A stretch of 64,000 bases of DNA from Minisyncoccota bacterium (GCA_028695015.1 JAQVJR010000002.1:706-64705), one strand, 5' to 3'. Counted from the stretch's first letter, positions 5,117 through 30,601 are shown. Made by a program: numbers and translations. The notes: a model not told the origin generated them from the sequence alone.

Positions 5117-5122
5117 TAAGAA

Positions 5123-5148
5123 AAGGGCAATTAAATTGCCCTTTTTTA
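5123..5148. terminator. Bidirectional rho-independent terminator
   Basis: AAGGGCAATT-AA-ATTGCCCTT hairpin flanked by an A-run and a T-run, between convergent genes. Confidence 0.55.
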
Positions 5149-5152
5149 TTTC

Positions 5153-5647
5153 TTAATTTTTGATTTTAGAATTCCAATAAGCTCTGATGATTTTTCTTTT
5201 ATTATTATATGTCCAATGATGGATAACAGGGAAATTATGATAGGTCCATAAACTAACAGCTTTTTCTTTACCAATATAAAATCCAATATGATAATGAAAT
5301 TCTTTTTTTCTATTTTTATCTATGGATAATTCTTTTTCCCAAATAACAACACTGCCAGCAGGCATTTTAGAAGAAATCTTTATTTCTTTCCATTCTGATT
5401 CTTTAATATCTTTTTCTGTGCCTAAAACAGTAAAATGTAATCTTTGAATCAAGTCAAAGAGTTTTAAAACAGAACTGACAAAATAAGCACAAGAAACAGA
5501 GCCATTATCAAGAACATCTTGTTTTTTACCTTTTACCAGACAAAAAGCATTAGCCCACATTTTAGATCCACAGGCATTTTCTATCATTGATAAATAATTA
5601 TCTTTAAACAACAGTGTTAATTCTTTTTTATTTTTAACTGTTTTCAT
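5153..5647 (-). CDS. NlpC/P60-superfamily (papain-fold) protein, putative hydrolase
   Basis: Cys in SCAYFVSS, then GSVVIW...HYHIGFYIGKEKAVS resembling the NlpC/P60 GDLVFF...HVGIYIG His motif, then a later His. No signal peptide. Confidence 0.35.
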   Translation of the reverse strand: MKTVKNKKELTLLFKDNYLSMIENACGSKMWANAFCLVKGKKQDVLDNGSVSCAYFVSSVLKLFDLIQRLHFTVLGTEKDIKESEWKEIKISSKMPAGSVVIWEKELSIDKNRKKEFHYHIGFYIGKEKAVSLWTYHNFPVIHHWTYNNKRKIIRAYWNSKIKN

Positions 5648-5656
5648 ATTTTTAAA

Positions 5657-6076
5657 TTATTTTATATTTATCAAATGAGATTTTAAAAATTTTTCTATAC
5701 CCTCAATTACTTCTTTTTTTAATTCTGCAGGACTGGTGGTAACCCAAATAGCAAAATTATACAAAGCTTGATTATCTACTTCAACCCATTTATTATTTTT
5801 ATATAAAAAAATAAGTAAAGAAGTCATGGCTATTCTTTTATTACCATTTTGAAAAGGGTGGTTTTTAATCATTAGATAAAACAAAATAGCGGCTTTAGAA
5901 ATTAATCCGCTATAAAGATATTTGTTATTAAATTTTTGAAATGGAACGGCTAAACAACTTTCTAAAACACGAGGAAATCTTGTTTCAAATGGCGGAATCG
6001 GTTCATTGAATTCCATAAAGCTTTTAGCTAAATTATGTGCTATATATTTTACTTCAGCTAAAGTAATTATTTTCAT
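5657..6076 (-). CDS. doc: Doc (death-on-curing)/Fic-family toxin
   Basis: HPFQNGNKRIAM matches the Doc variant of the Fic motif (HxFx[DN]GNKR). About 139 aa. Directly downstream of a small HTH gene. Confidence 0.75.
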   Translation of the reverse strand: MKIITLAEVKYIAHNLAKSFMEFNEPIPPFETRFPRVLESCLAVPFQKFNNKYLYSGLISKAAILFYLMIKNHPFQNGNKRIAMTSLLIFLYKNNKWVEVDNQALYNFAIWVTTSPAELKKEVIEGIEKFLKSHLINIK

Positions 6077-6078
6077 AG

Positions 6079-6354
6079 TTATTCCTGCCCTAAGAGCTTG
6101 AGAGTTGTTTTGTATTCTGAGATTGTTTTTTTAATTCCCTTATCTAAAATTGATTTTTGTTTCTCAGTTAAAGCTTTACCTGAAATACTTTCAAATTCTT
6201 TCTTCGGAATAGCAAAATTACGACCAATTCTTGTGGCTTTTAATTGCCCTTTTTTTATTCTTTTTAAAATAGCTTCTCGGCTAATACCCAAAAGCTTGGC
6301 AACTTCACTAACAGTTAAAAACTCTTTATTTTTCATAATATTTTTGATAATCAC
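6079..6354 (-). CDS. HTH (excisionase/MerR-like) DNA-binding protein, putative antitoxin of the Doc module
   Basis: LTVSEVAKLLGISREAILKRIKKGQL helix-turn-helix. 3-bp gap to doc. Operator repeats lie immediately upstream. Confidence 0.6.
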   Translation of the reverse strand: MIIKNIMKNKEFLTVSEVAKLLGISREAILKRIKKGQLKATRIGRNFAIPKKEFESISGKALTEKQKSILDKGIKKTISEYKTTLKLLGQE

Positions 6355-6356
6355 TT

Positions 6357-6411
6357 AATAGCAGGTTATCATATGATAACCACTTTATAGCAGGTTATCA
6401 CATGGTGATTA
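6357..6411. promoter_or_regulatory. Operator: two direct copies of TAGCAGGTTATCA(T/C)ATG, the first inside a perfect 18-bp palindrome GGTTATCATATGATAACC
   Basis: Seen directly in the sequence, 3-57 bp upstream of the antitoxin start. Typical of TA autoregulation sites. Confidence 0.5.
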
Positions 6412-6424
6412 AAATATCAAGTTC

Positions 6425-6955
6425 TTAATTTAAGGACTTTTTTGCTTTTTTCTCTAAATACATTGCCTTATCTGCTATACCTATCATTTCTTGTATAGTT
6501 ATTCCTTGTTTCCTCTCACTAATACCAGCGCTTATATTAAAAGGCATATGTTTTTTAATTCTTTGTAATAATAATTCTGCTCCTTGTTTTGAAGTATAAG
6601 GAAGGGCTATTAAAAACTCATCCCCTCCCCATCTGCCAGCAATATCAGTTTTTCTTAAACCTTTCTTTATAGCTAAGGAAACTTCAATCAAAGCCTTATC
6701 CCCTTCTAAATGTCCTTTAGTATCGTTAATCATCTTTAAATCATCCATATCTATTAAAATAATACTAAAAGGAGTATTATGTCTTTCACTTTTCCATAAT
6801 TCTCTGTTTATTATTTCACTTAAAATTAAACGATTATAAAGTCCAGTTAAAGGATCTTTTAATAGACCTTTTTCTCCGTATTTTAATACAATCCCTATTA
6901 TTTTAAAAAACTCAGATATTTTTTTAAACATATTTGATATATTTTTAATTACCAA
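6425..6955 (-). CDS. Stand-alone GGDEF-domain protein (putative diguanylate cyclase)
   Basis: RWGGDEF motif. LTGLYNR and the substrate-binding region are present. No sensor domain. The start overlaps the DUF2207 stop. Confidence 0.8.
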   Translation of the reverse strand: MVIKNISNMFKKISEFFKIIGIVLKYGEKGLLKDPLTGLYNRLILSEIINRELWKSERHNTPFSIILIDMDDLKMINDTKGHLEGDKALIEVSLAIKKGLRKTDIAGRWGGDEFLIALPYTSKQGAELLLQRIKKHMPFNISAGISERKQGITIQEMIGIADKAMYLEKKAKKSLN

Positions 6956-8793
6956 CTACCACCGCCGCCACCGCCAAATCCTCCTCCACTACCACCACTA
7001 AATCCAGATTGACCACTAGCAGCTGTATGTCCAGTAGCGACAAAGCTTGAATTTAAAGCTGTATTTATAGCTTGCATTCTAGAAACCATAATAATTGAAT
7101 TAAAGCTAGTTCCTTGTGTTCCTTGATACCAATCAGGAATGGCCGCAACAATGTTTTTAAATAAATTAGCCCATTGTTTTTCCACACCAAATAAAATAGC
7201 ATAAGGAAGATATTCAGCAAATTTTTCAGGATGAGCTTCAGGAGAAAAATGGAATTTTACTCTATCACGTTCTACAGTTTTTAAGAATAACTCAAATCCT
7301 TTTATCTTTTCTTTCATTTGCATTCCTTGTTCAGTTAAGCTAGGCATGATTTTAATAAAGATAGAAAAAATTATCATATTTATTAAAAGCCCTCCAAAAG
7401 TACTAAAGATGCTTAAGAAGAAAAATTTATCAAATTTTAATAAAATAAAAGGCAATACAACAAAGCATATAGCTATATAAAAAACTATTATTATAGATTG
7501 CCAGTCTTTAAGTTTTTTAATAAGAGCAAAAGGATTTTCTGGAAATAGGTTTTTATTTGTTAAGTTTTTACCTAAAGATGTTTTAGCTTGATCTAATTCT
7601 GTTTTCATTTTTGTTTGTTTTGAAAAACTTGAAGCATTTTTAAGCTGAGATAAGAAAACTTCATTTTTGCTTTCAAAAATATTATCTAATAAATATTTCT
7701 CATATTTATTTAATACATCTTCTGGTTTTTGTTTATCAGTTTTAATAAACTTCCAATCTGTTGATTTAAAAATCAAAGTCTTTTTTTCTTCTTCTTGAAT
7801 GATAAAATAACCTCTTCGAGCTAAATCTATAAGTGTAGCTGTGGCCATTTTACCTAAATTAAGAGAAGTTTCTGTTAATATAATATGTGCTTCTGCTGGA
7901 GAAATACCTGCTGGGGCTTCATATTCAGCCATGATAGATTTTAAAGATCGTGGGTTGCGTCCTTTTTTCCACCACATAGATGAAAGAAAACCAAAGATAA
8001 GCACAGGAATAAACAATAAAGTGTATAAGAAAACAAGAATAATTTTATTTAATATTGCTGATTCTATTTTAGTTTGAGTGTATTTTTTCTCCACTTCTTG
8101 AACAAATCCCTTTGGCCAACCTATTGCAATTGTTAATCCTTCTTTAGGCTTTAAATCAGAAGTTATAAAAGAAATAACTTTAGCTGAAAGAGCTTTATCA
8201 ATTAAACAATTTTCTTCTCTAGAGCCAGAAACTCCTGTATAGCACTTAGTTTTAAAATCATCTTTAATTGATAATGTATTAAAGAAATTATCTAAAGCAA
8301 AATGAGCTTCTGCATGTTCAATTGGAATTTGCCAATCATTACCAGTGGTATTTAGGAATAATTCATCATATTCATCAAAATAATTAATAATACCCTTAAG
8401 AACATATTTGATAATATAGGTATTTTGCCCACTAATTAATTTATTAGCTGAACCAATCTTAATTACAAAATCATTTCCTTCTTTATAGACTTGATATTCA
8501 ATATTTTTACCATGCTCATCTTGGACTCTAAGAATTTCATAATCCAAAACCAGAGTTTTATCTTCCAAAGGATATTTAAAAGGAATCTGACGAAAAATTC
8601 CATGCTTTTGATTAGAGCCAAAATCATAAACAATAGTTTCTTGAATTTCCACATCAGAGCTTTCTTTAACTAGGATATTAGTTTGAAAACTACGAATGAT
8701 TTCTGTATTATCAGCCAGAACAATATTTTGTCCAATAAAAATACTTCCTGCAAAGGTTATTAAAATTAATAAATTAATTATTCTTTTTTTCAT
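6949..8793 (-). CDS. DUF2207-family membrane protein
   Basis: Signal/TM at the N-terminus, a large extracytoplasmic domain, several TM helices and a C-terminal Gly-rich tail (GGSGGGFGGGGGGSW) characteristic of DUF2207. Confidence 0.55.
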   Translation of the reverse strand: MKKRIINLLILITFAGSIFIGQNIVLADNTEIIRSFQTNILVKESSDVEIQETIVYDFGSNQKHGIFRQIPFKYPLEDKTLVLDYEILRVQDEHGKNIEYQVYKEGNDFVIKIGSANKLISGQNTYIIKYVLKGIINYFDEYDELFLNTTGNDWQIPIEHAEAHFALDNFFNTLSIKDDFKTKCYTGVSGSREENCLIDKALSAKVISFITSDLKPKEGLTIAIGWPKGFVQEVEKKYTQTKIESAILNKIILVFLYTLLFIPVLIFGFLSSMWWKKGRNPRSLKSIMAEYEAPAGISPAEAHIILTETSLNLGKMATATLIDLARRGYFIIQEEEKKTLIFKSTDWKFIKTDKQKPEDVLNKYEKYLLDNIFESKNEVFLSQLKNASSFSKQTKMKTELDQAKTSLGKNLTNKNLFPENPFALIKKLKDWQSIIIVFYIAICFVVLPFILLKFDKFFFLSIFSTFGGLLINMIIFSIFIKIMPSLTEQGMQMKEKIKGFELFLKTVERDRVKFHFSPEAHPEKFAEYLPYAILFGVEKQWANLFKNIVAAIPDWYQGTQGTSFNSIIMVSRMQAINTALNSSFVATGHTAASGQSGFSGGSGGGFGGGGGGSW

Positions 8794-8800
8794 AAAGAAT

Positions 8801-9532
8801 CTACTTTTCTAACTTTTTATCTGCAGCACGATATTGACAATATATGCATCCAGGGCTTGCTTGAGGAGCTTTATCAGAATCTAGGCATTTTTTAGCTTCT
8901 TTGATAGTAGCCTCAACCCAAGAATCATTGCCTTTATAATCAAGGATCTGAATATCAAATTCTAATATTCCATCAAATTTATCTTCACCTGTTTTCCCAT
9001 TACAATAAACAAAATAAGCAATATCTGAGATTTTAAAATTGTTTTTCCTAAATATCCATTGATATATTTCTGCTTGTCTTTTATATCCCTGACGATATTC
9101 AGAATCCATGCTTATTTCTTGAGTGGTACTAGTAGATTTGTAATCAACAATATGTAATTCATTATGAGGATTAATCCAAATATCATCAATGGCCCCAAAA
9201 ATTACAAAATTAGTTGATTTATCAAAATATTGAATACCTTTCCAATTATTACGCCAATCATCAATATTTTCATGTTGATAAGGAACAGCATCTATTTTAT
9301 ATTTTTTCATTAAAGAATGGGCTTCACCTTTTTTTCTTAAAATATCAAATTCTTTTTTTAATAAAGTATCTACAGCTTGATTTAAAGAATAAGGAAACAT
9401 TGGTGGCCTAGAAACACCTAATCGCCTATCTAAATAAAAGCATCTAGGACAGTTAACAAATAAATCTATCTTTGTACGACTTAATTTGAAAGGTTTTTTA
9501 TCTTTTGGATCATAAATATTTTTTCTAGCCAT
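8801..9532 (-). CDS. PD-(D/E)XK nuclease with Cys4 cluster (Cas4/RecB-like fold), stand-alone
   Basis: N-terminal CPRC, central GAIDD...IVDYKS (D..D.K nuclease core) and C-terminal CIYCQY, as in Cas4-like Fe-S nucleases. 7 bp upstream of the DUF2207 gene. Confidence 0.5.
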   Translation of the reverse strand: MARKNIYDPKDKKPFKLSRTKIDLFVNCPRCFYLDRRLGVSRPPMFPYSLNQAVDTLLKKEFDILRKKGEAHSLMKKYKIDAVPYQHENIDDWRNNWKGIQYFDKSTNFVIFGAIDDIWINPHNELHIVDYKSTSTTQEISMDSEYRQGYKRQAEIYQWIFRKNNFKISDIAYFVYCNGKTGEDKFDGILEFDIQILDYKGNDSWVEATIKEAKKCLDSDKAPQASPGCIYCQYRAADKKLEK

Positions 9533-9567
9533 AATTTATTTTAATTTAGGTTTTTATAAACAAACAT

Positions 9568-9663
9568 TTGACAAAATTATATAAGAGAATTAATATACAA
9601 TTAGAATTCATAGGAAGAAGCACCTCTTTAGGTTTTGTCCTCAAGCGGTGCTCTTTTATTTTA
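9568..9663 (+). ncRNA. Candidate small RNA: sigma70-like promoter followed about 60 nt later by an intrinsic terminator
   Basis: TTGACA(9568-9573)-N17-TAATAT(9591-9596), then an AGCACC...GGUGCU extended hairpin with a UUUUAUUUUA tail. No plus-strand CDS nearby. Confidence 0.25.
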
Positions 9664-9727
9664 TAAACTTTAATGCTTGTTTTCTCTTTGCTATATTTTA
9701 CATTCTTTTACTTGAATTTACAAAAAT

Positions 9728-10678
9728 TTATTTATCCCAAGGAAAATCATTACCAAAATGCCCCCATTGGCTAGTTTTGAAATAGATAGGTTTTCTTAAA
9801 TCTAGGAAATCAATAATTCCTTTAGGGGTTAAATCAAATCCTTTAATTTGTATTTCCTTATTATCTATTAGAGCACTTTTCATTAAAGGTTGTTTTTGGC
9901 CAATAGCATAAGCTAATTTAATTAAAACTTCTTTTGCCTTGTATTTTTTTAAATAACTTATGGCTATTTTCCTTGCCATATAAGCAGCACTACGATCAAC
10001 TTTTGAAGGGTCTTTGCCACTAAAGCAACCTCCACCAACAGGTATTCTTGGTCCATAACTATCAACAATAATTTTTCTTCCAGTTAAACCAGTATCAGCA
10101 TCAAACCCACCAATACTCCAATCACCACAAGGATTAATGCAATATTCTTTTGCTTTTATTAGAGATTTTACTAATTTCTCAAGATCTTTTTGAGGAACAT
10201 TTTGAAAACTAACAACTACTGTTGATATTTCTTTATTTTTTATTGTTACTTGGGTTTTGCCATCAAAGGGATATTTTTCATAAATCTTTTGACATAAATC
10301 CCTTGCTAGTTCATATTCTAAAGGCATTAAGCTTTTTGTCTCTTTAGTAGCATAACCAATCATAATCCCCTGATCTCCTGCTCCACCAATTTCTACTCCC
10401 TGGGCTATTTCTGGACTTTGTTCAACTAGATTAATACTTAAATTATAATTCTTATTAATTAAGCTATAAACAATATCTGTAATTTGTTTTTTACTAATCT
10501 TGGCTTTACTTTTAATTTCTCCAATAATGACAATTTTATTATGACCTCCGATAACTTCTATAGCTGTACGACTATCTTTATCTTTTTCAAGATAATAATC
10601 TAAAATCTTATCTGCAATTTGATCACAGGTTTTATCAGGATGTTTTGGAGAAACAAATTCTGCTGTTTTGATTTTCAT
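9728..10678 (-). CDS. metK: S-adenosylmethionine synthetase (short form)
   Basis: HPDKTCDQIAD N-terminal motif and GGGCFSGKDPSKVDRSAAYMAR signature. Preceded by a SAM-I riboswitch. Confidence 0.85.
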   Translation of the reverse strand: MKIKTAEFVSPKHPDKTCDQIADKILDYYLEKDKDSRTAIEVIGGHNKIVIIGEIKSKAKISKKQITDIVYSLINKNYNLSINLVEQSPEIAQGVEIGGAGDQGIMIGYATKETKSLMPLEYELARDLCQKIYEKYPFDGKTQVTIKNKEISTVVVSFQNVPQKDLEKLVKSLIKAKEYCINPCGDWSIGGFDADTGLTGRKIIVDSYGPRIPVGGGCFSGKDPSKVDRSAAYMARKIAISYLKKYKAKEVLIKLAYAIGQKQPLMKSALIDNKEIQIKGFDLTPKGIIDFLDLRKPIYFKTSQWGHFGNDFPWDK

Positions 10679-11419: not shown

Positions 11420-13864
11420 TTATTTCCAAAGTTTTAAAATTTTATTTTTAATCTTTTGATCAAAAAACTTAATCAACTCTTTATTAGCCTTAATAGCTTT
11501 CTGCTCCAAATCAAGCACTTCGATAATTTGTTTTTGAACTTTTATTGGTGGCAAAGGTACTTGGAGATTCTGAATATCGTTTTGGTTTATACTTGGGTAT
11601 GCTCCTCGCTCCATTCTTAAAATCATTTGATTTTGCAAGTAATCAGAGAAAAGTACGTAATATATATATTTACCAATAACATTCTTTTTTGGAGCAAGGA
11701 CGGCAAAACCTGTAGAAACTATTGTATTTTTTGGCAATTCGTTTAAATATGCGAAAGCTTTTAAATTTGGTCTAACTGTAGATAATAAAATATCTCCCTT
11801 TTGAGCAATTCTTTTTGCCCTACTTGGTGCTTCATCGCCTTTTATTTTATTCCTAAAAGAAATATTACCAGATGTGTTTTCCACAGAAGAAATATCAACA
11901 TAGTAAAATAATTTATTTCCATAAGTGCTTATAGGATCAATGGAATTTTTATTTATTTCTACAATTTCTTCTAATCTTTTTATTTCCCATTCTGGATTAA
12001 TTTCAATGATTGGTTTATAATTTTCTATTATTTGTTTCGCACCGTCTATGATTTTTTGATAATTATTAAGCTCCGCAACAATTTGTTTTTGAACTTCCAT
12101 TGGCGGGAGAGGGATTTGAATTTTCCTTAAATATTGTTTTGACAAATGCTTAAGTCCCGCTCCTCTAAAACCAGCATTAAGAACATTTATATTATTTTTA
12201 AGACAGTAATATAAGAACGTATTGTCTAAATCTTTGGTTTTACTTTTAATAACGAAAACATCAGCAGAGGTTGTAAAATTTCTTGATAAATGAACGCTCG
12301 CCATGCCTCCTGTGCCTAAAATTAAGGCTTCTTCTTTATAGTCAGCTACATTAAACCATTTATCCTGTACTTGACTTGAAGTAAAAAATGGATAATCTCC
12401 AGTAAGTTTACCATCGCCAGCTTTTCTTTTTGATTTTTGCAAGAATTCAATTAATTTTCCTAATTCCACCATTTGCCACGTCGCTTCCATTCCAATTCCT
12501 CTTTCACTGCTGGCATAATGGTTAATAGAAAGATTATATTCCCCGTCCTCGGCAATCTTTTCTTTTTTGATAACACTTGCTAATTTTTGCTCTTTTTCGC
12601 TAAGATTAAATTTTTTATCTTGCTGAACTGTTTGCTTATATTTTTTAATAATTTCTAAAGCTTTGGGTAAATCATTTTTATCTATTTCTCTCCTTTGTGC
12701 ACCTAGATCAAAACCATCATTTTCAATTTTGACAAATAGAATTTCTTTCACTTTTCGTGCTATTGGATTGCTGAAAAACAAGATACTAGTCTTGACACCA
12801 GCATAAGGATTAAATACTCCTCGTGGCAAAGAAACAACAGCCCAAAGTCCGTCTTCAACAAGTATTTTACGAAGCTGTTTATAGGCTCTACCTGATTGAA
12901 AAATTATACCTTCTGGAACAATAATACCAGCTTTTCCATTAGGAGCTAGATGCTCTACTATATAGTCTACAAACAATACCTCTGACCGTTTAGATTGTAT
13001 AAGAAAGCGATTATGAGGCTTTATACCACCTCTTGGAGTCATAAAAGGAGGATTAGCTAGTAAACAATCAAAAGCATCATCCCAACGCTCTAAACTGCTT
13101 AAAGTGTTATATTCATAGATGCCAGGTTCAGCGAAACCATGTAAATAAAGATTTACAAGTGATAAACGTACCATTTCGTGAGATATATCATAACCTACTA
13201 TATTATTCGTCAGTTTTTTTCTTTCTGTAGAAGTCAATAAAGAACCTGGCCTGCCCATTTTCTTATCTGTATTATTTTTTAATATATGTTTGTAAGCGGC
13301 AATAAGAAAACCAGCAGTACCACAAGCTGGATCTAATATCTTATCTTCTTTTTGTGGGTCAACTATTTCAACTATAAAATCAATGATATGACGTGGTGTT
13401 CTAAAATAGCCTGCTTTCTTTTGTCCAGCAACAGTTGATAAAAGATATTCAAAAGCGTTTCCTAACTCTTCGCTATGATCATATTTAAATTCATTAATTC
13501 CTTTAAGAAATAAATCTAATATGGCCGGATCTTTAAATGGTAAAATAGCACCCTTAAAAATATCCCTGAATAGCTGCGGTAGTTTATTATTCGTGCTCAT
13601 TTTTTCTAATCCTTCAGAATAAAGCAAAACTCTTTCGTGCCCAGCGAGAGAACGATCCATTATATTTTTCCAAGAATATTTTTTATATTCACCAGAAAAA
13701 AATAATTTACCGCCTAATTCCTCATTCTGTTCATCAATATCACTCATGAACTTATAAATTAAACTAAGCGTGATTTGTTCTATCTGTTGAGAAGGCACAG
13801 GAATTTTACCAACAAGCACATCACGCAAGTAATCTATTTTTCTTTTTGTTTCTGCGGTTAACAT
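11420..13864 (-). CDS. hsdMS: Type I restriction-modification system, fused methyltransferase (HsdM) + specificity (HsdS) subunit
   Basis: HsdM motifs GYFRTPRHI, DPACGTAGFL (motif I) and NPPF (motif IV) in the N-terminal 470 aa. Then two target-recognition domains separated by HsdS conserved coiled regions (PLPPMEVQKQIVAELN... and LQVPLPPIKVQKQIIEVLD...). Confidence 0.75.
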   Translation of the reverse strand: MLTAETKRKIDYLRDVLVGKIPVPSQQIEQITLSLIYKFMSDIDEQNEELGGKLFFSGEYKKYSWKNIMDRSLAGHERVLLYSEGLEKMSTNNKLPQLFRDIFKGAILPFKDPAILDLFLKGINEFKYDHSEELGNAFEYLLSTVAGQKKAGYFRTPRHIIDFIVEIVDPQKEDKILDPACGTAGFLIAAYKHILKNNTDKKMGRPGSLLTSTERKKLTNNIVGYDISHEMVRLSLVNLYLHGFAEPGIYEYNTLSSLERWDDAFDCLLANPPFMTPRGGIKPHNRFLIQSKRSEVLFVDYIVEHLAPNGKAGIIVPEGIIFQSGRAYKQLRKILVEDGLWAVVSLPRGVFNPYAGVKTSILFFSNPIARKVKEILFVKIENDGFDLGAQRREIDKNDLPKALEIIKKYKQTVQQDKKFNLSEKEQKLASVIKKEKIAEDGEYNLSINHYASSERGIGMEATWQMVELGKLIEFLQKSKRKAGDGKLTGDYPFFTSSQVQDKWFNVADYKEEALILGTGGMASVHLSRNFTTSADVFVIKSKTKDLDNTFLYYCLKNNINVLNAGFRGAGLKHLSKQYLRKIQIPLPPMEVQKQIVAELNNYQKIIDGAKQIIENYKPIIEINPEWEIKRLEEIVEINKNSIDPISTYGNKLFYYVDISSVENTSGNISFRNKIKGDEAPSRAKRIAQKGDILLSTVRPNLKAFAYLNELPKNTIVSTGFAVLAPKKNVIGKYIYYVLFSDYLQNQMILRMERGAYPSINQNDIQNLQVPLPPIKVQKQIIEVLDLEQKAIKANKELIKFFDQKIKNKILKLWK

Positions 13865-13869
13865 ATTAA

Positions 13870-16377
13870 TTAAACAAAAGCATTTAGCCTAACATTATCT
13901 TTTATATATTCAGGGATTTTAGTTAAATAATCTTCTTTGCCAAGTTTTTGTAAAACCTCTATTATTGTTGGATCTCCAGCTAATTCATTAAAACGTTTTT
14001 GATTAATTACTGTTCGGAAGTTTTCATCTACTAAATAGCTTCTAAAAAATTCACGTGCTTCGTAATACAATTCCGGCTTAATTTCTGAATTAACTAAATA
14101 CTTTTCAAATTCTTCTTGCGCTAATTCATCTTTTGATTTAAAACGTGGAATACGTCCCAAAACTTTATCCATTATTTCCCAAAAGGAAATATGACGGTCA
14201 GCTTTATATCCTTGCCTAATACGCTCTAAGGTAAAGAAATCTTCTGGTTTATTGAATATATTTTCTTTAACAAACTGCTCCATTAATTCATAATCACCAT
14301 TCTTAATAGCTTCTTTAAATTCATTATGTTTTTTAGCAGCCTCTTTAACTGTATTTTCAAACCGGCTAATATAAAGTTCTTTATCTACACGCATTATATT
14401 TCCTTCAAAAGTCATTACTTCCATCATCTTTAAAGGATCAGGGATGTTAATTGAAGTTTTATCAACTAATGGTACTGGGGCTAGCTTTTCTGTTATGCCT
14501 TTTTTTCTTGGAGGTAATTTAATAACTTGATCATAGGGATATTTCGTTTCAAAATATTCACAATTAGCAAAAAAATCAAAAAGTTTATACCCTTCCTTTG
14601 TTTTTCTCACTTCATTATCTCTATCTGAATGCTTAAAAGTATAAATACGAGTACCACGTCCTTTAATCTGAACAAAATCAGTTGGTGAAAAAATTGGTCT
14701 CATTAAACAAAGATTTAATACATCTTGGCAATCATAACCAGTTGTCATCATTCCAACAGTTACACAAACTCTTGTTTTGCTAGACTTATAACCTTCTAGA
14801 AATTTAGTAAATCCATTAAGTTTATTATTAGCAAAATTAATAGTCATTTTTTGAGCACTTGGAACATCTGAAGTAATCTGAACAGCAAAATCAGAATTGT
14901 ATTTTTCAGGAAACATTTTCATAGCAAATTCATTTAATATCTGAGTAATCTTTGAAGCGTGCTTACGACTAACACAGAACACGATTGTTTTTCCTATTTC
15001 ATTAGTTATGGGATCACGTTCAGCATTATCCATAAATGCTTTTACGAATTCAGAATTTGTTTGTTCGGAAAAGAAATTTCTTTCAAAATCACTTTGGTTA
15101 TAAATAACTTGTTCTTCTTCCCCTTCCTCTGTTTGTACCTGTACTGCATAACCTTCATCAGATAAAAGCTGAGTCGTTATTTCTGTACGACAATCTATGG
15201 CTGTTGGTAAAACCAAGAATCCATCTTTGGCACCATCAACTAGTGTATAGCGAAAAGTTGGTTCACTGCTCTCACACCCAAATGTTTTATAAGTAGATAA
15301 AAGATTGCGTCTTTCCATTTCTCTAGGATCACGTTCATTAATATCTTTCTGACTAAGATTTTTAAGATAATCTTTTGGAGTAGCAGTTAAACCTAATTTA
15401 TGGCCAATAAAATATTCAAAAATGGTGCGACTATTTCCAGAAATTGAACGATGGGCTTCATCAGAAATGATTAAATCAAAATCAGTGGGCGTAAAGATTT
15501 TAAGATATTTATTATTATGAGAAATGCTTTGGACTGTGGTAATAACAACTTCAGCTTTACGCCAATCATCTCTATTCTGTTTAAAAATAACTGTATGATA
15601 ATCTGGCTGTAAGAATTTTTTAAATGCTTTTTCAGCTTGATTTTCTAATTCCAAACGGTCAACTAAAAACAAAACACGGCGTGCATTGTTAGTTTTAAGA
15701 TAAAGCTTAATAATTGCAGAAGCAAGAACTGTTTTACCAGTACCTGTTGCCATTTCAAAGAGAAAGCGATTTTTACCCTCAGAAACAGCTCTTTGTAAAG
15801 ATTTTATAGCATCAAGTTGATATTGACGAAGAAAATGTAAGCCAGTATCAAAAATAAATGACTGCCTTTTTTGTTCATCAGGCCATCGTGGGTCTTGTTC
15901 GTAAAAAGGGTTTTGAGTTAAGGCAATATAATTTTCTTTTATTTCTTCCTTTATAATTTTATTAGTATCTGGAGTAAATTCTTTATTACCTTTTAAGCTT
16001 TGAAGGGTTGGAAATGTAGAAATTCTTGTTGGATTGCCTAATTCTTTATCCCAAAAATAATGAATATTACCATTAGAAAGAATGATAAAGCGAACATTTT
16101 GACTATTAGCATATCGGCGAGCTTGCTCCTTGCCAATTAAAGGATCTTTACTTTCAGATTTTGCTTCTAAAACACAGATTGGAAAGTTTTGATTATCTAA
16201 TAAAAGATAATCTACAAAACCTGTACTAGATTTTTGAAAATCATTTCCCAGCTCCTCTATTTCAATATTACCTTCTAGTTTTATATTTGCTTTTCCATCT
16301 TTATTATCAAAAAATCTCCAACCAGATTTTTGGAGCAAATCATTAATTTTAATCCTCGCCCTTGCTTCTTTTTCCAT
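13870..16377 (-). CDS. hsdR: Type I restriction enzyme R subunit (compact, 835 aa)
   Basis: N-terminal PD-(D/E)xK nuclease (VLEAKSES...QARRYA). SF2 ATPase motifs MATGTGKT and SDEAHRS. 5 bp upstream of hsdMS. Confidence 0.8.
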   Translation of the reverse strand: MEKEARARIKINDLLQKSGWRFFDNKDGKANIKLEGNIEIEELGNDFQKSSTGFVDYLLLDNQNFPICVLEAKSESKDPLIGKEQARRYANSQNVRFIILSNGNIHYFWDKELGNPTRISTFPTLQSLKGNKEFTPDTNKIIKEEIKENYIALTQNPFYEQDPRWPDEQKRQSFIFDTGLHFLRQYQLDAIKSLQRAVSEGKNRFLFEMATGTGKTVLASAIIKLYLKTNNARRVLFLVDRLELENQAEKAFKKFLQPDYHTVIFKQNRDDWRKAEVVITTVQSISHNNKYLKIFTPTDFDLIISDEAHRSISGNSRTIFEYFIGHKLGLTATPKDYLKNLSQKDINERDPREMERRNLLSTYKTFGCESSEPTFRYTLVDGAKDGFLVLPTAIDCRTEITTQLLSDEGYAVQVQTEEGEEEQVIYNQSDFERNFFSEQTNSEFVKAFMDNAERDPITNEIGKTIVFCVSRKHASKITQILNEFAMKMFPEKYNSDFAVQITSDVPSAQKMTINFANNKLNGFTKFLEGYKSSKTRVCVTVGMMTTGYDCQDVLNLCLMRPIFSPTDFVQIKGRGTRIYTFKHSDRDNEVRKTKEGYKLFDFFANCEYFETKYPYDQVIKLPPRKKGITEKLAPVPLVDKTSINIPDPLKMMEVMTFEGNIMRVDKELYISRFENTVKEAAKKHNEFKEAIKNGDYELMEQFVKENIFNKPEDFFTLERIRQGYKADRHISFWEIMDKVLGRIPRFKSKDELAQEEFEKYLVNSEIKPELYYEAREFFRSYLVDENFRTVINQKRFNELAGDPTIIEVLQKLGKEDYLTKIPEYIKDNVRLNAFV

Positions 16378-29171: not shown

Positions 29172-30053
29172 TTATACATCCATTTGCCTTAATGCTTTGA
29201 TTCTTTCTTGCACTGGTGGATGAGTCATCCAGAGCTTAGCAATATTTTCTTTTTTTAAAGGATTAGAGATAAAAAGATGATTAGTCGCGCTAGAAGCAAC
29301 TCTTAAAGGCTCTGGGTCTTGAGAAATTTTTTCTAAAGCCCTAGCTAGACCTTCAGGATAACGAGTTAATAATGCTCCAGTAGCATCTGCTAGAAATTCT
29401 CTTTTTCTTGAAACAGCTAATCTCATTAATGTAGCTGCTATTGGAGCTAAAATAGCAGCAATAATACCAATTAAAAACATTATTGCTCCTGCAGAATCCT
29501 TACTATCCCTTCTTCTGCCCCAAAAAATAGATCTCATAGTCCAATCAGATAAAATTGCAATCAATCCAGCTAAGACAACCACAGCTGAGGCTAAAAGAAT
29601 ATCTCGATTTCCAATATGGGCTAATTCATGAGCAATAACTCCCTCTAATTCAGATTTATCTAGCTTATTTAATAAACCCTGGGTAACACAAATTACTCCA
29701 TGTTTAGGATCTCTGCCAGTAGCAAATGCATTAGGGGCTGATTCATTCATAATGTAAATTCGAGGCATGGGTAAGCCAGCAGTAATAGAAAGATTTTCTA
29801 CTATTCTGTATAATTCTGGATTATCTTGTTTAGCTATTAGCTTAGCATTAGTCATTGAAAGAATAACTTTATCAGAATTCCAATAACTAATAAAACTCAT
29901 TAAAAAACTAATAAAAACAGCCACATATAGAATATATGGCGTTTCTAAGATATAGCTGAAAATCCAGCCAAGGAAAATCACTAAAACAAGAAAGACAGTG
30001 ATTAAAAACCACGTTTTCCAAATATTAGAACTAGCCTGAGTATAAAGGGTCAT
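29172..30053 (-). CDS. htpX: Zinc metalloprotease HtpX
   Basis: HELAHIGNRD HExxH motif. TM topology. Followed by lemA. Confidence 0.85.
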   Translation of the reverse strand: MTLYTQASSNIWKTWFLITVFLVLVIFLGWIFSYILETPYILYVAVFISFLMSFISYWNSDKVILSMTNAKLIAKQDNPELYRIVENLSITAGLPMPRIYIMNESAPNAFATGRDPKHGVICVTQGLLNKLDKSELEGVIAHELAHIGNRDILLASAVVVLAGLIAILSDWTMRSIFWGRRRDSKDSAGAIMFLIGIIAAILAPIAATLMRLAVSRKREFLADATGALLTRYPEGLARALEKISQDPEPLRVASSATNHLFISNPLKKENIAKLWMTHPPVQERIKALRQMDV

Positions 30054-30601
30054 TTTTGAAAATCAACCTTGACCGCTTCTCTTTCTACAGGTTCAGTGAT
30101 TTCAAATAATGCTTCTTCTTTAAAACCAAAAATACTTGCAAAGATATTTTTAGGAAAAACTTTAACTGCTGTATTCAAATCACGGACATTAGCATTGTAA
30201 AAACGACGGGCAGCTTGAATTTTATCTTCTGTGTCTACTAATTCTCTTTGTAATTCAATAAAGTTTTGATTAGCTTTAAGCTCTGGATAATTTTCAGCCA
30301 CAGCAAAAAGGGTTTTTAAAGTTTGGCCAAATTGATTCTCAGCTTCTATTTTATCTTTTGCATCAACTGCTCCCATAGCTCTAGTTCTAGCTTCTGTTAC
30401 TTTTTCAAAAACTTCTTTTTCATGAGTCATATATCCTTTAACAGATTCAACCAAATTAGGCACTAAATCATATCTTCTCTTTAATTGAACATCAATATCT
30501 GCCCAAGCTTCTTTTACCCTTATTCTTAATTTTACTAAAGAGTTATAAGTAACAATAGCAAAAGCGACTAAAGCTATTAAAACGATCCAAAAAATAGTCA
30601 T
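30050..30601 (-). CDS. lemA: LemA family protein
   Basis: N-terminal TM plus conserved LemA core. Overlaps the htpX start. Confidence 0.8.
   Translation of the reverse strand: MTIFWIVLIALVAFAIVTYNSLVKLRIRVKEAWADIDVQLKRRYDLVPNLVESVKGYMTHEKEVFEKVTEARTRAMGAVDAKDKIEAENQFGQTLKTLFAVAENYPELKANQNFIELQRELVDTEDKIQAARRFYNANVRDLNTAVKVFPKNIFASIFGFKEEALFEITEPVEREAVKVDFQK

Follow-up and report, generated by a model that had tools for sequence, protein, structure and literature searches.

A Cas4-like nuclease, a DUF2207 membrane protein and a minimal diguanylate cyclase adjoin in a Pacebacteria genome and are probably independent of one another

Do three adjoining genes for a nuclease, a membrane protein and a nucleotide cyclase make up a signalling module, or do they merely share a crowded stretch of a small genome? 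The question is raised by positions 6425-9532 of a 64,000-nucleotide stretch of DNA from a Minisyncoccota bacterium (GCA_028695015.1 JAQVJR010000002.1:706-64705), hereafter the window. The host is a tiny-genome groundwater bacterium represented by a metagenome-assembled genome (MAG) of Ca. Pacebacteria, within the Patescibacteria or candidate phyla radiation (CPR). An earlier reading of the sequence alone (the sequence-only reading) had seen here an operon of a Cas4-like nuclease gene, a DUF2207 gene and a GGDEF gene, and had likened the trio to cyclic-oligonucleotide-based anti-phage signalling systems (CBASS), with envelope or cyclic di-GMP (c-di-GMP) housekeeping as the alternative. Open reading frames (ORFs) and Pfam matches agree with these three minus-strand genes and their domain calls. 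What the evidence favours is close to the housekeeping alternative: we infer that the three genes, all of known families, are likely to be functionally independent and to adjoin, probably co-transcribed, only through the compact and co-oriented layout of the genome. The features of the locus, with the evidence for each in brackets, are:

8801..9532, minus strand: PD-(D/E)XK nuclease, Cas4/RecB-like, stand-alone, 243 aa, with a putative CxxC...CxxC metal or iron-sulphur (Fe-S) site (Pfam, alignment, AlphaFold2 (AF2), Foldseek)
6949..8793, minus strand: DUF2207 membrane protein, 614 aa (Pfam, hydropathy, AF2)
6425..6931, minus strand: minimal diguanylate cyclase, 168 aa, ATG at 6931 (Pfam, TIGR00254, alignments)
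9533..9727, minus strand: AT-rich intergenic region, 195 bp, metK to nuclease gene (sequence reading)

Coding sequence makes up 90% of the window, whose GC content is 26-33%. Its minus strand holds 58 of the 67 genes and 40% of same-strand neighbours are separated by 20 bp or less, so the tight junctions of the trio are no more than the genome's default. The nuclease and DUF2207 genes are 7 bp apart (8794-8800), as had been read from the sequence. The overlap described for the DUF2207 and GGDEF genes, of 7 bp, holds only if the latter begins at an alternative TTG at 6955 (ORF 6425-6955, minus strand, 176 aa); the public gene calls that we compared (contig JAQULI010000001.1, MAG GCA_028718665.1) begin it at the ATG at 6931, giving 168 aa and a 17-bp gap. 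The terminator scan called no terminator-like site within the trio and, given junctions of 7 and 17 bp, the three genes are probably on one transcript, as previously proposed. The promoter of this unit likely lies in 9533..9727, a position at which a sibling genome carries two additional genes. The promoter and terminator scans called no convincing sigma-70 consensus or terminator in this region, and the former was uninformative because it returned 52 matches against 38 expected at 28% GC. A hairpin noted by eye downstream of metK (~9618-9654) was dropped, having a 22-nt loop and no call in the terminator scan.

The comparison of gene neighbourhoods lends no support to a unit. With the nuclease as anchor, the 80 best loci from species-representative genomes were surveyed with flanks of up to 8 kb, and at least 2.5 kb of downstream sequence was available in 63 of them. 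A DUF2207 gene occurred within 8 kb of the nuclease at two of the 80 loci (at 1.6 and 3.7 kb, never adjacent) and a GGDEF gene at one; the conserved co-occurrence that the sequence-only reading had proposed to look for is lacking at these loci. Clustering of neighbours within 3 kb of the nuclease gave RmuC as the largest family (5/80), followed by ExoVII-L/HRDC (4), GIY-YIG (3), MGMT-like (3) and SNase (3). This excess of DNA-metabolism genes is faint, too weak for pathway assignment, and no cas family was found among the recurrent neighbour clusters of the 80 loci.

DUF2207 and GGDEF served as the second and third anchors. Only the species of the window and a sibling at 88-95% identity (loci L090 and L110-112) have the trio uninterrupted. 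Other relatives are arranged as follows, hyp164 being an orphan gene described below:

L084 with L120 (overlapping at 100% over 1,051 bp; 61-74% identity): nuclease, MFS, DUF2207, GGDEF, hyp164
L113-115: HIT, MFS, cyclophilin-like, DUF2207, GGDEF, hyp164
L086/087: SNase, Pyr_excise, nuclease, DUF2207, small transmembrane (TM) protein, DNA_alkylation; no GGDEF
L092: Pyr_excise, DUF2207, small TM protein, DNA_alkylation, MFS, further genes, hyp164
L093, L095 and L100: order reversed, DUF2207 first and nuclease 0.4-2.8 kb downstream
L097: DUF2207, helix-turn-helix (HTH) gene, Doc

At L092, L096 and L097, DUF2207 stands without either partner in the available sequence, which at L096 and L097 reaches only ~1 kb into the flanks. 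At 63% identity, GGDEF orthologues come after an alpha/beta-hydrolase gene and before MazG and NUDIX genes; at 42-46%, they come after a GT4 glycosyltransferase gene and, in two of three lineages, before a Zincin_1 gene. An unrelated flank, rSAM-Memo-AMMECR1-amidase-Fmt-Def-PriA, at least equals the trio in conservation. The arrangements among relatives at 60-75% identity are permutations of one ancestral neighbourhood; because they show insertions, replacements, losses and inversions while the flanks stay collinear, the trio is without support as a conserved unit, and its gene order is kept no better than background synteny in this lineage would lead one to expect. Complete loss of synteny in relatives, which the sequence-only reading had named as counting against it, is strictly not what is seen: the order survives in one lineage (L084 with L120; 61-74% identity), interrupted by an MFS gene, and is kept there no better than that of unrelated flanking genes. 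The ancestral neighbourhood also has a DNA-repair flavour (L086 28-1772, L092 2746-3174): in close relatives, genes for Pyr_excise (a pyrimidine-dimer glycosylase of the T4-endonuclease-V type), for the thermonuclease SNase and for a DNA_alkylation repair protein lie near the nuclease or DUF2207.

Taken singly, the three proteins are readily placed. The nuclease matches Pfam PDDEXK_1 (PF12705) at E = 1.6e-12, above cutoff; besides the GGDEF, DUF2207 and PDDEXK_1 families, the only other Pfam match in the trio is a sub-threshold one to the PDDEXK-like DUF3799. In a 22-sequence alignment, four cysteines (C28, C31, C229, C232), the core D116/D117 and D130-Y-K132, and the RecB-type motif Q153..Y157 are invariant. 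The four-cysteine cluster and D..D.K core noticed at the outset are therefore confirmed, and the catalytic residues, whose loss had been raised as a possible objection, are present. The AF2 model (predicted local distance difference test (pLDDT) 90.5, predicted TM-score (pTM) 0.88) carries no N-terminal TM or signal helix and matches, with Foldseek probability 1.0, the nuclease domains of AdnA/AdnB, RecE, lambda exonuclease, Cas4 (4r5q, 4ic1) and Exo5, with ACE1 also among the structure matches; the nuclease profile found no relative in the PDB by sequence (best E 0.24). With D...(D/E)-x-K, QxxxY and a restriction-endonuclease-like fold, the protein has the features of the RecB-family PD-(D/E)XK superfamily. 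Cas4 itself is a poorer fit. Canonical Cas4 has a 1+3 arrangement of cysteine ligands (C...CxxCx5C), and the nuclease has no third C-terminal cysteine of this type and so no 1+3 Fe-S pattern. Its score against the cas4 equivalog TIGR00372 is 26.5 bits, short of the cutoff of 65, and its matches to the Cas4 models of PADLOC are limited to 2.8e-09 to 6e-04. No CRISPR array was found in the 64-kb window by array search, nor any cas gene in its Pfam annotation, in line with the earlier remark that none lies nearby. The nuclease is Cas4-like, yet it is not Cas4.

A search that took in 5.8 billion proteins returned more than 7,500 clusters of this nuclease at 90% identity, typically ~60% identical to the query and nearly all of 240-260 aa; at 50% clustering the family shrinks to 284 representatives (E<=1e-30). 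Matches with source names belong to Patescibacteria, and at least 577 fall in species-representative genomes. The family is compact and strongly constrained, and few proteins of the phylum are as well conserved. Among 2.9 million viral contigs the nuclease occurs on only 10, which may be misclassified host fragments. The enzyme would be cytoplasmic and act alone, its N- and C-terminal helices pinned by a four-cysteine metal or Fe-S site on a RecB/Cas4 fold, and would most likely serve repair or recombination by processing DNA ends or flaps. A few copies stand out. A Saccharibacteria-labelled genome has two tandem Cas4-like paralogues (L020 7953-9405; the second with PDDEXK_1 at 3.5e-09) and a GGDEF gene 1.6 kb downstream of them. 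A 60%-identical nuclease of the Patescibacteria type lies at 8001-8705 of L041 (CP070841.1), on a large non-CPR chromosome (3.5 Mb, 'Spirochaetota'), and further matches are labelled Omnitrophota, Gammaproteobacteria and other phyla; such copies outside the CPR could reflect horizontal transfer or mis-binning.

The GGDEF protein scores 125 bits against a Pfam cutoff of 23.8 (E = 2.4e-36) and matches TIGR00254 at E = 4.3e-36, and it aligns with the GGDEF domains of WspR and 7e6g. In a 12-member alignment its motif (G102-G-D-E-F106), D61/D63, N69 and D78 vary little or not at all. Across the family the invariant positions are D61, D63, K66, N69, D70, G73-H74, G77-D78, R93xxD96, R100-W-G-G-(D)-E-(F) and K161, and all residues for catalysis and guanine recognition are present. 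The inhibitory-type RxxD site (I-site), for which a check had been suggested, was found as R93-K-T-D96, followed by I-A-G-R-W and then GGDEF at the canonical 5-residue spacing, with R93 and D96 invariant in all 12 members. These residues point to a canonical diguanylate cyclase rather than an mCpol or CD-NTase enzyme. The Asp of GHxxGD speaks against Hypr-GGDEF enzymes, which make cGAMP, and as this Asp (D78) is invariant we rejected that assignment. The protein had been called a bare GGDEF domain; it indeed has no sensor domain, and is not quite bare, bearing a conserved N-terminal helix of ~24 residues (KKIxxFFxxxxLVLKYGEE) whatever the neighbouring gene. GGDEF cyclases require dimerisation, and the protein probably dimerises through this helix, makes c-di-GMP from GTP and, to judge from the intact motifs, would be feedback-inhibited at the RxxD site. 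Its family is small (about a dozen clusters at >=40% identity) and consists of minimal diguanylate cyclases with an I-site and without a sensor domain, present in some Patescibacteria. The 64-kb window is devoid of PilZ, EAL and HD-GYP genes, and an Rfam scan of it returned no riboswitch for c-di-GMP and nothing beyond one SAM riboswitch and two tRNAs.

The DUF2207 protein has both domains of its family, the N-terminal PF09972 (E 1.7e-23, 84.1 bits, gathering 24.4) and the C-terminal PF20990 (E 8.3e-40, 137.5 bits, gathering 33). Hydropathy segments at 3-28, 243-275, 428-464 and 457-487, a Lys/Arg-rich stretch after TM1 and an AF2 model (pLDDT 87) give its layout: a signal or anchor helix, a beta-sandwich ectodomain (29-242) and a TM helix, followed by a winged-helix-like domain in the cytoplasm, a TM hairpin and a C-terminal region, again cytoplasmic, whose tail is Gly-rich. 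The best PDB matches of the model are chains of human oligosaccharyltransferase (OST; 8b6l_O, 8pn9_E, 6s7t_E; E 8e-8 to 9e-6), which we take to be ribophorin-like, and the beta-sandwich at the N terminus of M1 aminopeptidases/LTA4H; it is the ectodomain that resembles both. The TM-scores are low (~0.2), with only part of the protein aligned, and the modelled likeness to OST and M1 aminopeptidases may point to a remote kinship of architecture. Experimental work on the family comes from a single study, which ties SMU.243 of S. mutans to stress tolerance and biofilm formation, not envelope biogenesis (PMC10457818). By analogy, the DUF2207 envelope protein of the window would contribute to stress tolerance or surface behaviour.

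Several observations weigh against the independence of the three genes. Their probable common transcript leaves room for co-regulation. The order DUF2207-GGDEF, in part with hyp164 following, is kept in four lineages, down to 61-65% identity. In about six related lineages, those with inverted order included, no more than 3 kb separates the nuclease and DUF2207 genes, and this nearness could reflect weak selection for proximity. Inspection for c-di-GMP receptors, moreover, covered only the 64-kb window of the genome.

The adjacency of DUF2207 and GGDEF is what would be expected if DUF2207 and the minimal cyclase, possibly together with hyp164, were a lineage-specific, two-component-like envelope-signalling pair, with the nuclease as a bystander. 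The DUF2207 ectodomain would sense the surface, and the cytoplasmic domain would recruit or dimerise the cyclase and thereby switch c-di-GMP synthesis. The gaps between the two genes are 15-18 bp in all four lineages (window, L110-112, L113-115, L120) at 61-100% GGDEF identity; the cyclase lacks a built-in sensor domain and depends on dimerisation; and the ~150-aa cytoplasmic domain and the cytoplasmic C-terminal region of DUF2207 are open for docking. The biofilm phenotype of the S. mutans DUF2207 mutant would also suit a classic output of c-di-GMP (PMC10457818). Against these stand orthologous cyclases that follow an alpha/beta-hydrolase (63% identity) or a glycosyltransferase (42-46%) and all have the same N-terminal helix, and DUF2207 orthologues at 50-65% identity without GGDEF (L092, L086, L093, L095, L097). 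A fused GGDEF domain was found in none of the 120 DUF2207 homologues listed, and the adjacency is conserved no better than unrelated backbone genes. We therefore hold such a pair to be unlikely. The bolder proposal that, in one Pacebacteria sub-clade, DUF2207 is the missing sensor of the cyclase and that, separately, the CxxC...CxxC nuclease is the main DNA-end processor of Patescibacteria is doubtful indeed. If the sensor part were true, it would give DUF2207 its first mechanistic role, as an envelope receptor gating c-di-GMP synthesis, and c-di-GMP signalling would be on record for ultra-small episymbiotic bacteria.

A link between the nuclease and DUF2207, for instance in DNA handling at the membrane during uptake or repair, with GGDEF inserted later, would account for their being adjacent or within 3 kb, in both orders, in about six lineages (window, L084, L086/087, L093, L095, L100) and 1.6-3.7 kb apart in two of 80 distant genomes. 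It has to contend with the other 78 distant genomes, where the nearness is absent, with DUF2207 loci at 36-40% identity that have no such nuclease in 6-kb flanks (L101-103), with a nuclease model devoid of an N-terminal membrane or signal helix, and with the soluble DNA-metabolism genes (RmuC, ExoVII-L, GIY-YIG, MGMT-like, Pyr_excise) that are the nuclease's occasional neighbours. We regard it as improbable.

The trio could, finally, be an anti-phage module in which a signal from the cyclase controls the membrane protein, the nuclease or both as abortive-infection effectors. A cyclase, a membrane protein and a nuclease do match such modules superficially, and a type I-like restriction-modification (R-M) system and a Doc toxin-antitoxin pair lie in the neighbourhood. 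CBASS requires a CD-NTase (SMODS) cyclase and an effector with a cyclic-nucleotide sensor domain. A PADLOC scan of six proteins matched CD-NTase or CBASS effector models to none of them; its matches were Cas4-fold models on the nuclease and PDC-S23/Doc on the neighbouring toxin, with no model for the cyclase. The one marginal match to DUF2207, a SLATT-like one on the 2-TM hairpin segment (E 0.0016), was rejected as spurious. Neither DUF2207 nor the nuclease has a SAVED, CARF, STING or S-2TMbeta sensor by Pfam or PADLOC. The statement that no GGDEF-based defence system is established is outdated, for Panoptes is a precedent of a GGDEF-fold cyclase with a TM effector (PMC12657218). There, mCpol, of GGDEF/Cas10 fold and largely without the GGDEF motif, makes 2',3'-c-di-AMP and is paired in a conserved operon with an S-2TMbeta, CARF-TM or SAVED-TM effector (PMC12657218). 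By these published features, which we used as PADLOC 2023 predates Panoptes, the locus is no Panoptes system: its cyclase is a canonical GGDEF enzyme with the guanine-specifying Asn and the I-site (PMC12657218). Gene distribution also tells against defence. Defence genes are patchy, and the nuclease is near-universal, strongly conserved, of single-copy type and without a fixed partner in the 80 genomes; it is rare on viral contigs, as given above; and the trio in uninterrupted form goes no further than one species and its sibling, the latter keeping it without the R-M island. By gene distribution the coupled CBASS-like module is largely refuted, and we give it hardly any credence.

Other elements near the trio are given here with their coordinates:

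6079-6354, minus strand: excisionase-type HTH antitoxin
5657-6076, minus strand: Doc/Fic toxin
5153-5647, minus strand: hyp164, orphan 164-aa protein
10727-10700, minus strand: terminator-like hairpin, riboswitch platform (terminator scan)
11277-11261, minus strand: terminator-like hairpin inside the bPH gene (terminator scan)
5119-5147, both strands: bidirectional hairpin (terminator scan)

The only nearby minus-strand terminator-like hairpins are thus two upstream of metK and the bidirectional one, and since none lies inside the trio and the next is at 5119-5147, the transcript may run on through the HTH-Doc pair and hyp164 to 5153. Two 29-bp direct repeats (6345-6402), each with a palindrome (TGATAACC/GGTTATCA), lie upstream of the HTH-Doc pair and are its probable operator. 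The same pair directly follows the nuclease in L065 and DUF2207 in L097, and therefore looks mobile. The hyp164 protein has no Pfam, NCBIfam or PDB match; its Cys (SCAYF) and His (HYHIGFY) motifs are reminiscent of papain-like or NlpC-type hydrolases. Its gene comes immediately after GGDEF in L113-115 and L120; in the former (L113 4757-5312) it is broken into two ORFs. On the other side of the trio, a SAM-I riboswitch (RF00162, 10746-10857, minus strand, 75.8 bits, gathering 44.4, hairpin 10727-10700) precedes a short MetK (316 aa, 9728-10678), a case of classic feedback control of S-adenosylmethionine (SAM) synthetase in a CPR genome. The type I-like R-M pair (11420-16377, minus strand) comprises an HsdR-like helicase/nuclease (835 aa, with an EcoAI-family match at 1.2e-74 that is below cutoff) and a fused methyltransferase and specificity subunit (814 aa) with weak MADS2/MADS5 similarity. 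The sibling L110 has DUF6804 and DUF5655 genes in its place, and the pair looks like a variable island; as its genes are missing from a sibling that keeps the trio, the flavour of a defence island is incidental.

With the three genes read as probably independent, the locus amounts to an ordinary piece of a streamlined genome and has no place in a catalogue of candidate defence systems. Orphan 'cas4' calls in Patescibacteria probably stand for a distinct, very conserved family of stand-alone nucleases with 2+2 cysteines and no fixed partners, which deserves biochemical characterisation. The minimal I-site diguanylate cyclases form a family repeatedly found after DUF2207 in one sub-clade, and this lineage-restricted adjacency is the sole residue of interest, with a weak possibility of meaning.

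From CBASS and Panoptes the trio differs in that no CD-NTase, SAVED, CARF or S-2TMbeta was detected in it by Pfam or PADLOC. It shares with Panoptes a small cyclase of the GGDEF/Cas10 palm superfamily encoded beside a membrane protein (PMC12657218); however, the cyclase of the window keeps the GGDEF motif and the guanine-specifying Asn69, its membrane neighbour is DUF2207, and the pairing is missing in many orthologues. As in WspR, PleD and DgcZ, all catalytic and guanine-binding residues are present and GGDEF and RxxD are canonical, whereas a receiver, PAS, GAF, CZB or TM sensor is replaced by the ~24-residue helix alone; compared with the GGDEF Pfam model, the protein is ~14 residues shorter after helix alpha3. 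The DUF2207 protein has both Pfam domains and the overall membrane architecture of S. mutans SMU.243, but not its uppP/mecA context. LemA, a frequent neighbour of DUF2207 in other bacteria, is not adjacent here and sits 21 kb off, paired with an M48 (HtpX-like) peptidase (29172-30601, minus strand) just downstream of GroES/GroEL. With the 'iron-staple' nucleases Cas4, AddB, AdnAB and Exo5, the nuclease shares its fold, the D...D-x-K and QxxxY motifs and conserved cysteines on the N- and C-terminal helices, which would staple the domain. It departs from them in having no cas genes, CRISPR array or helicase partner, in its 2+2 cysteines (CxxC...CxxC in place of C...CxxCx5C) and in forming a compact, phylum-wide family of its own.

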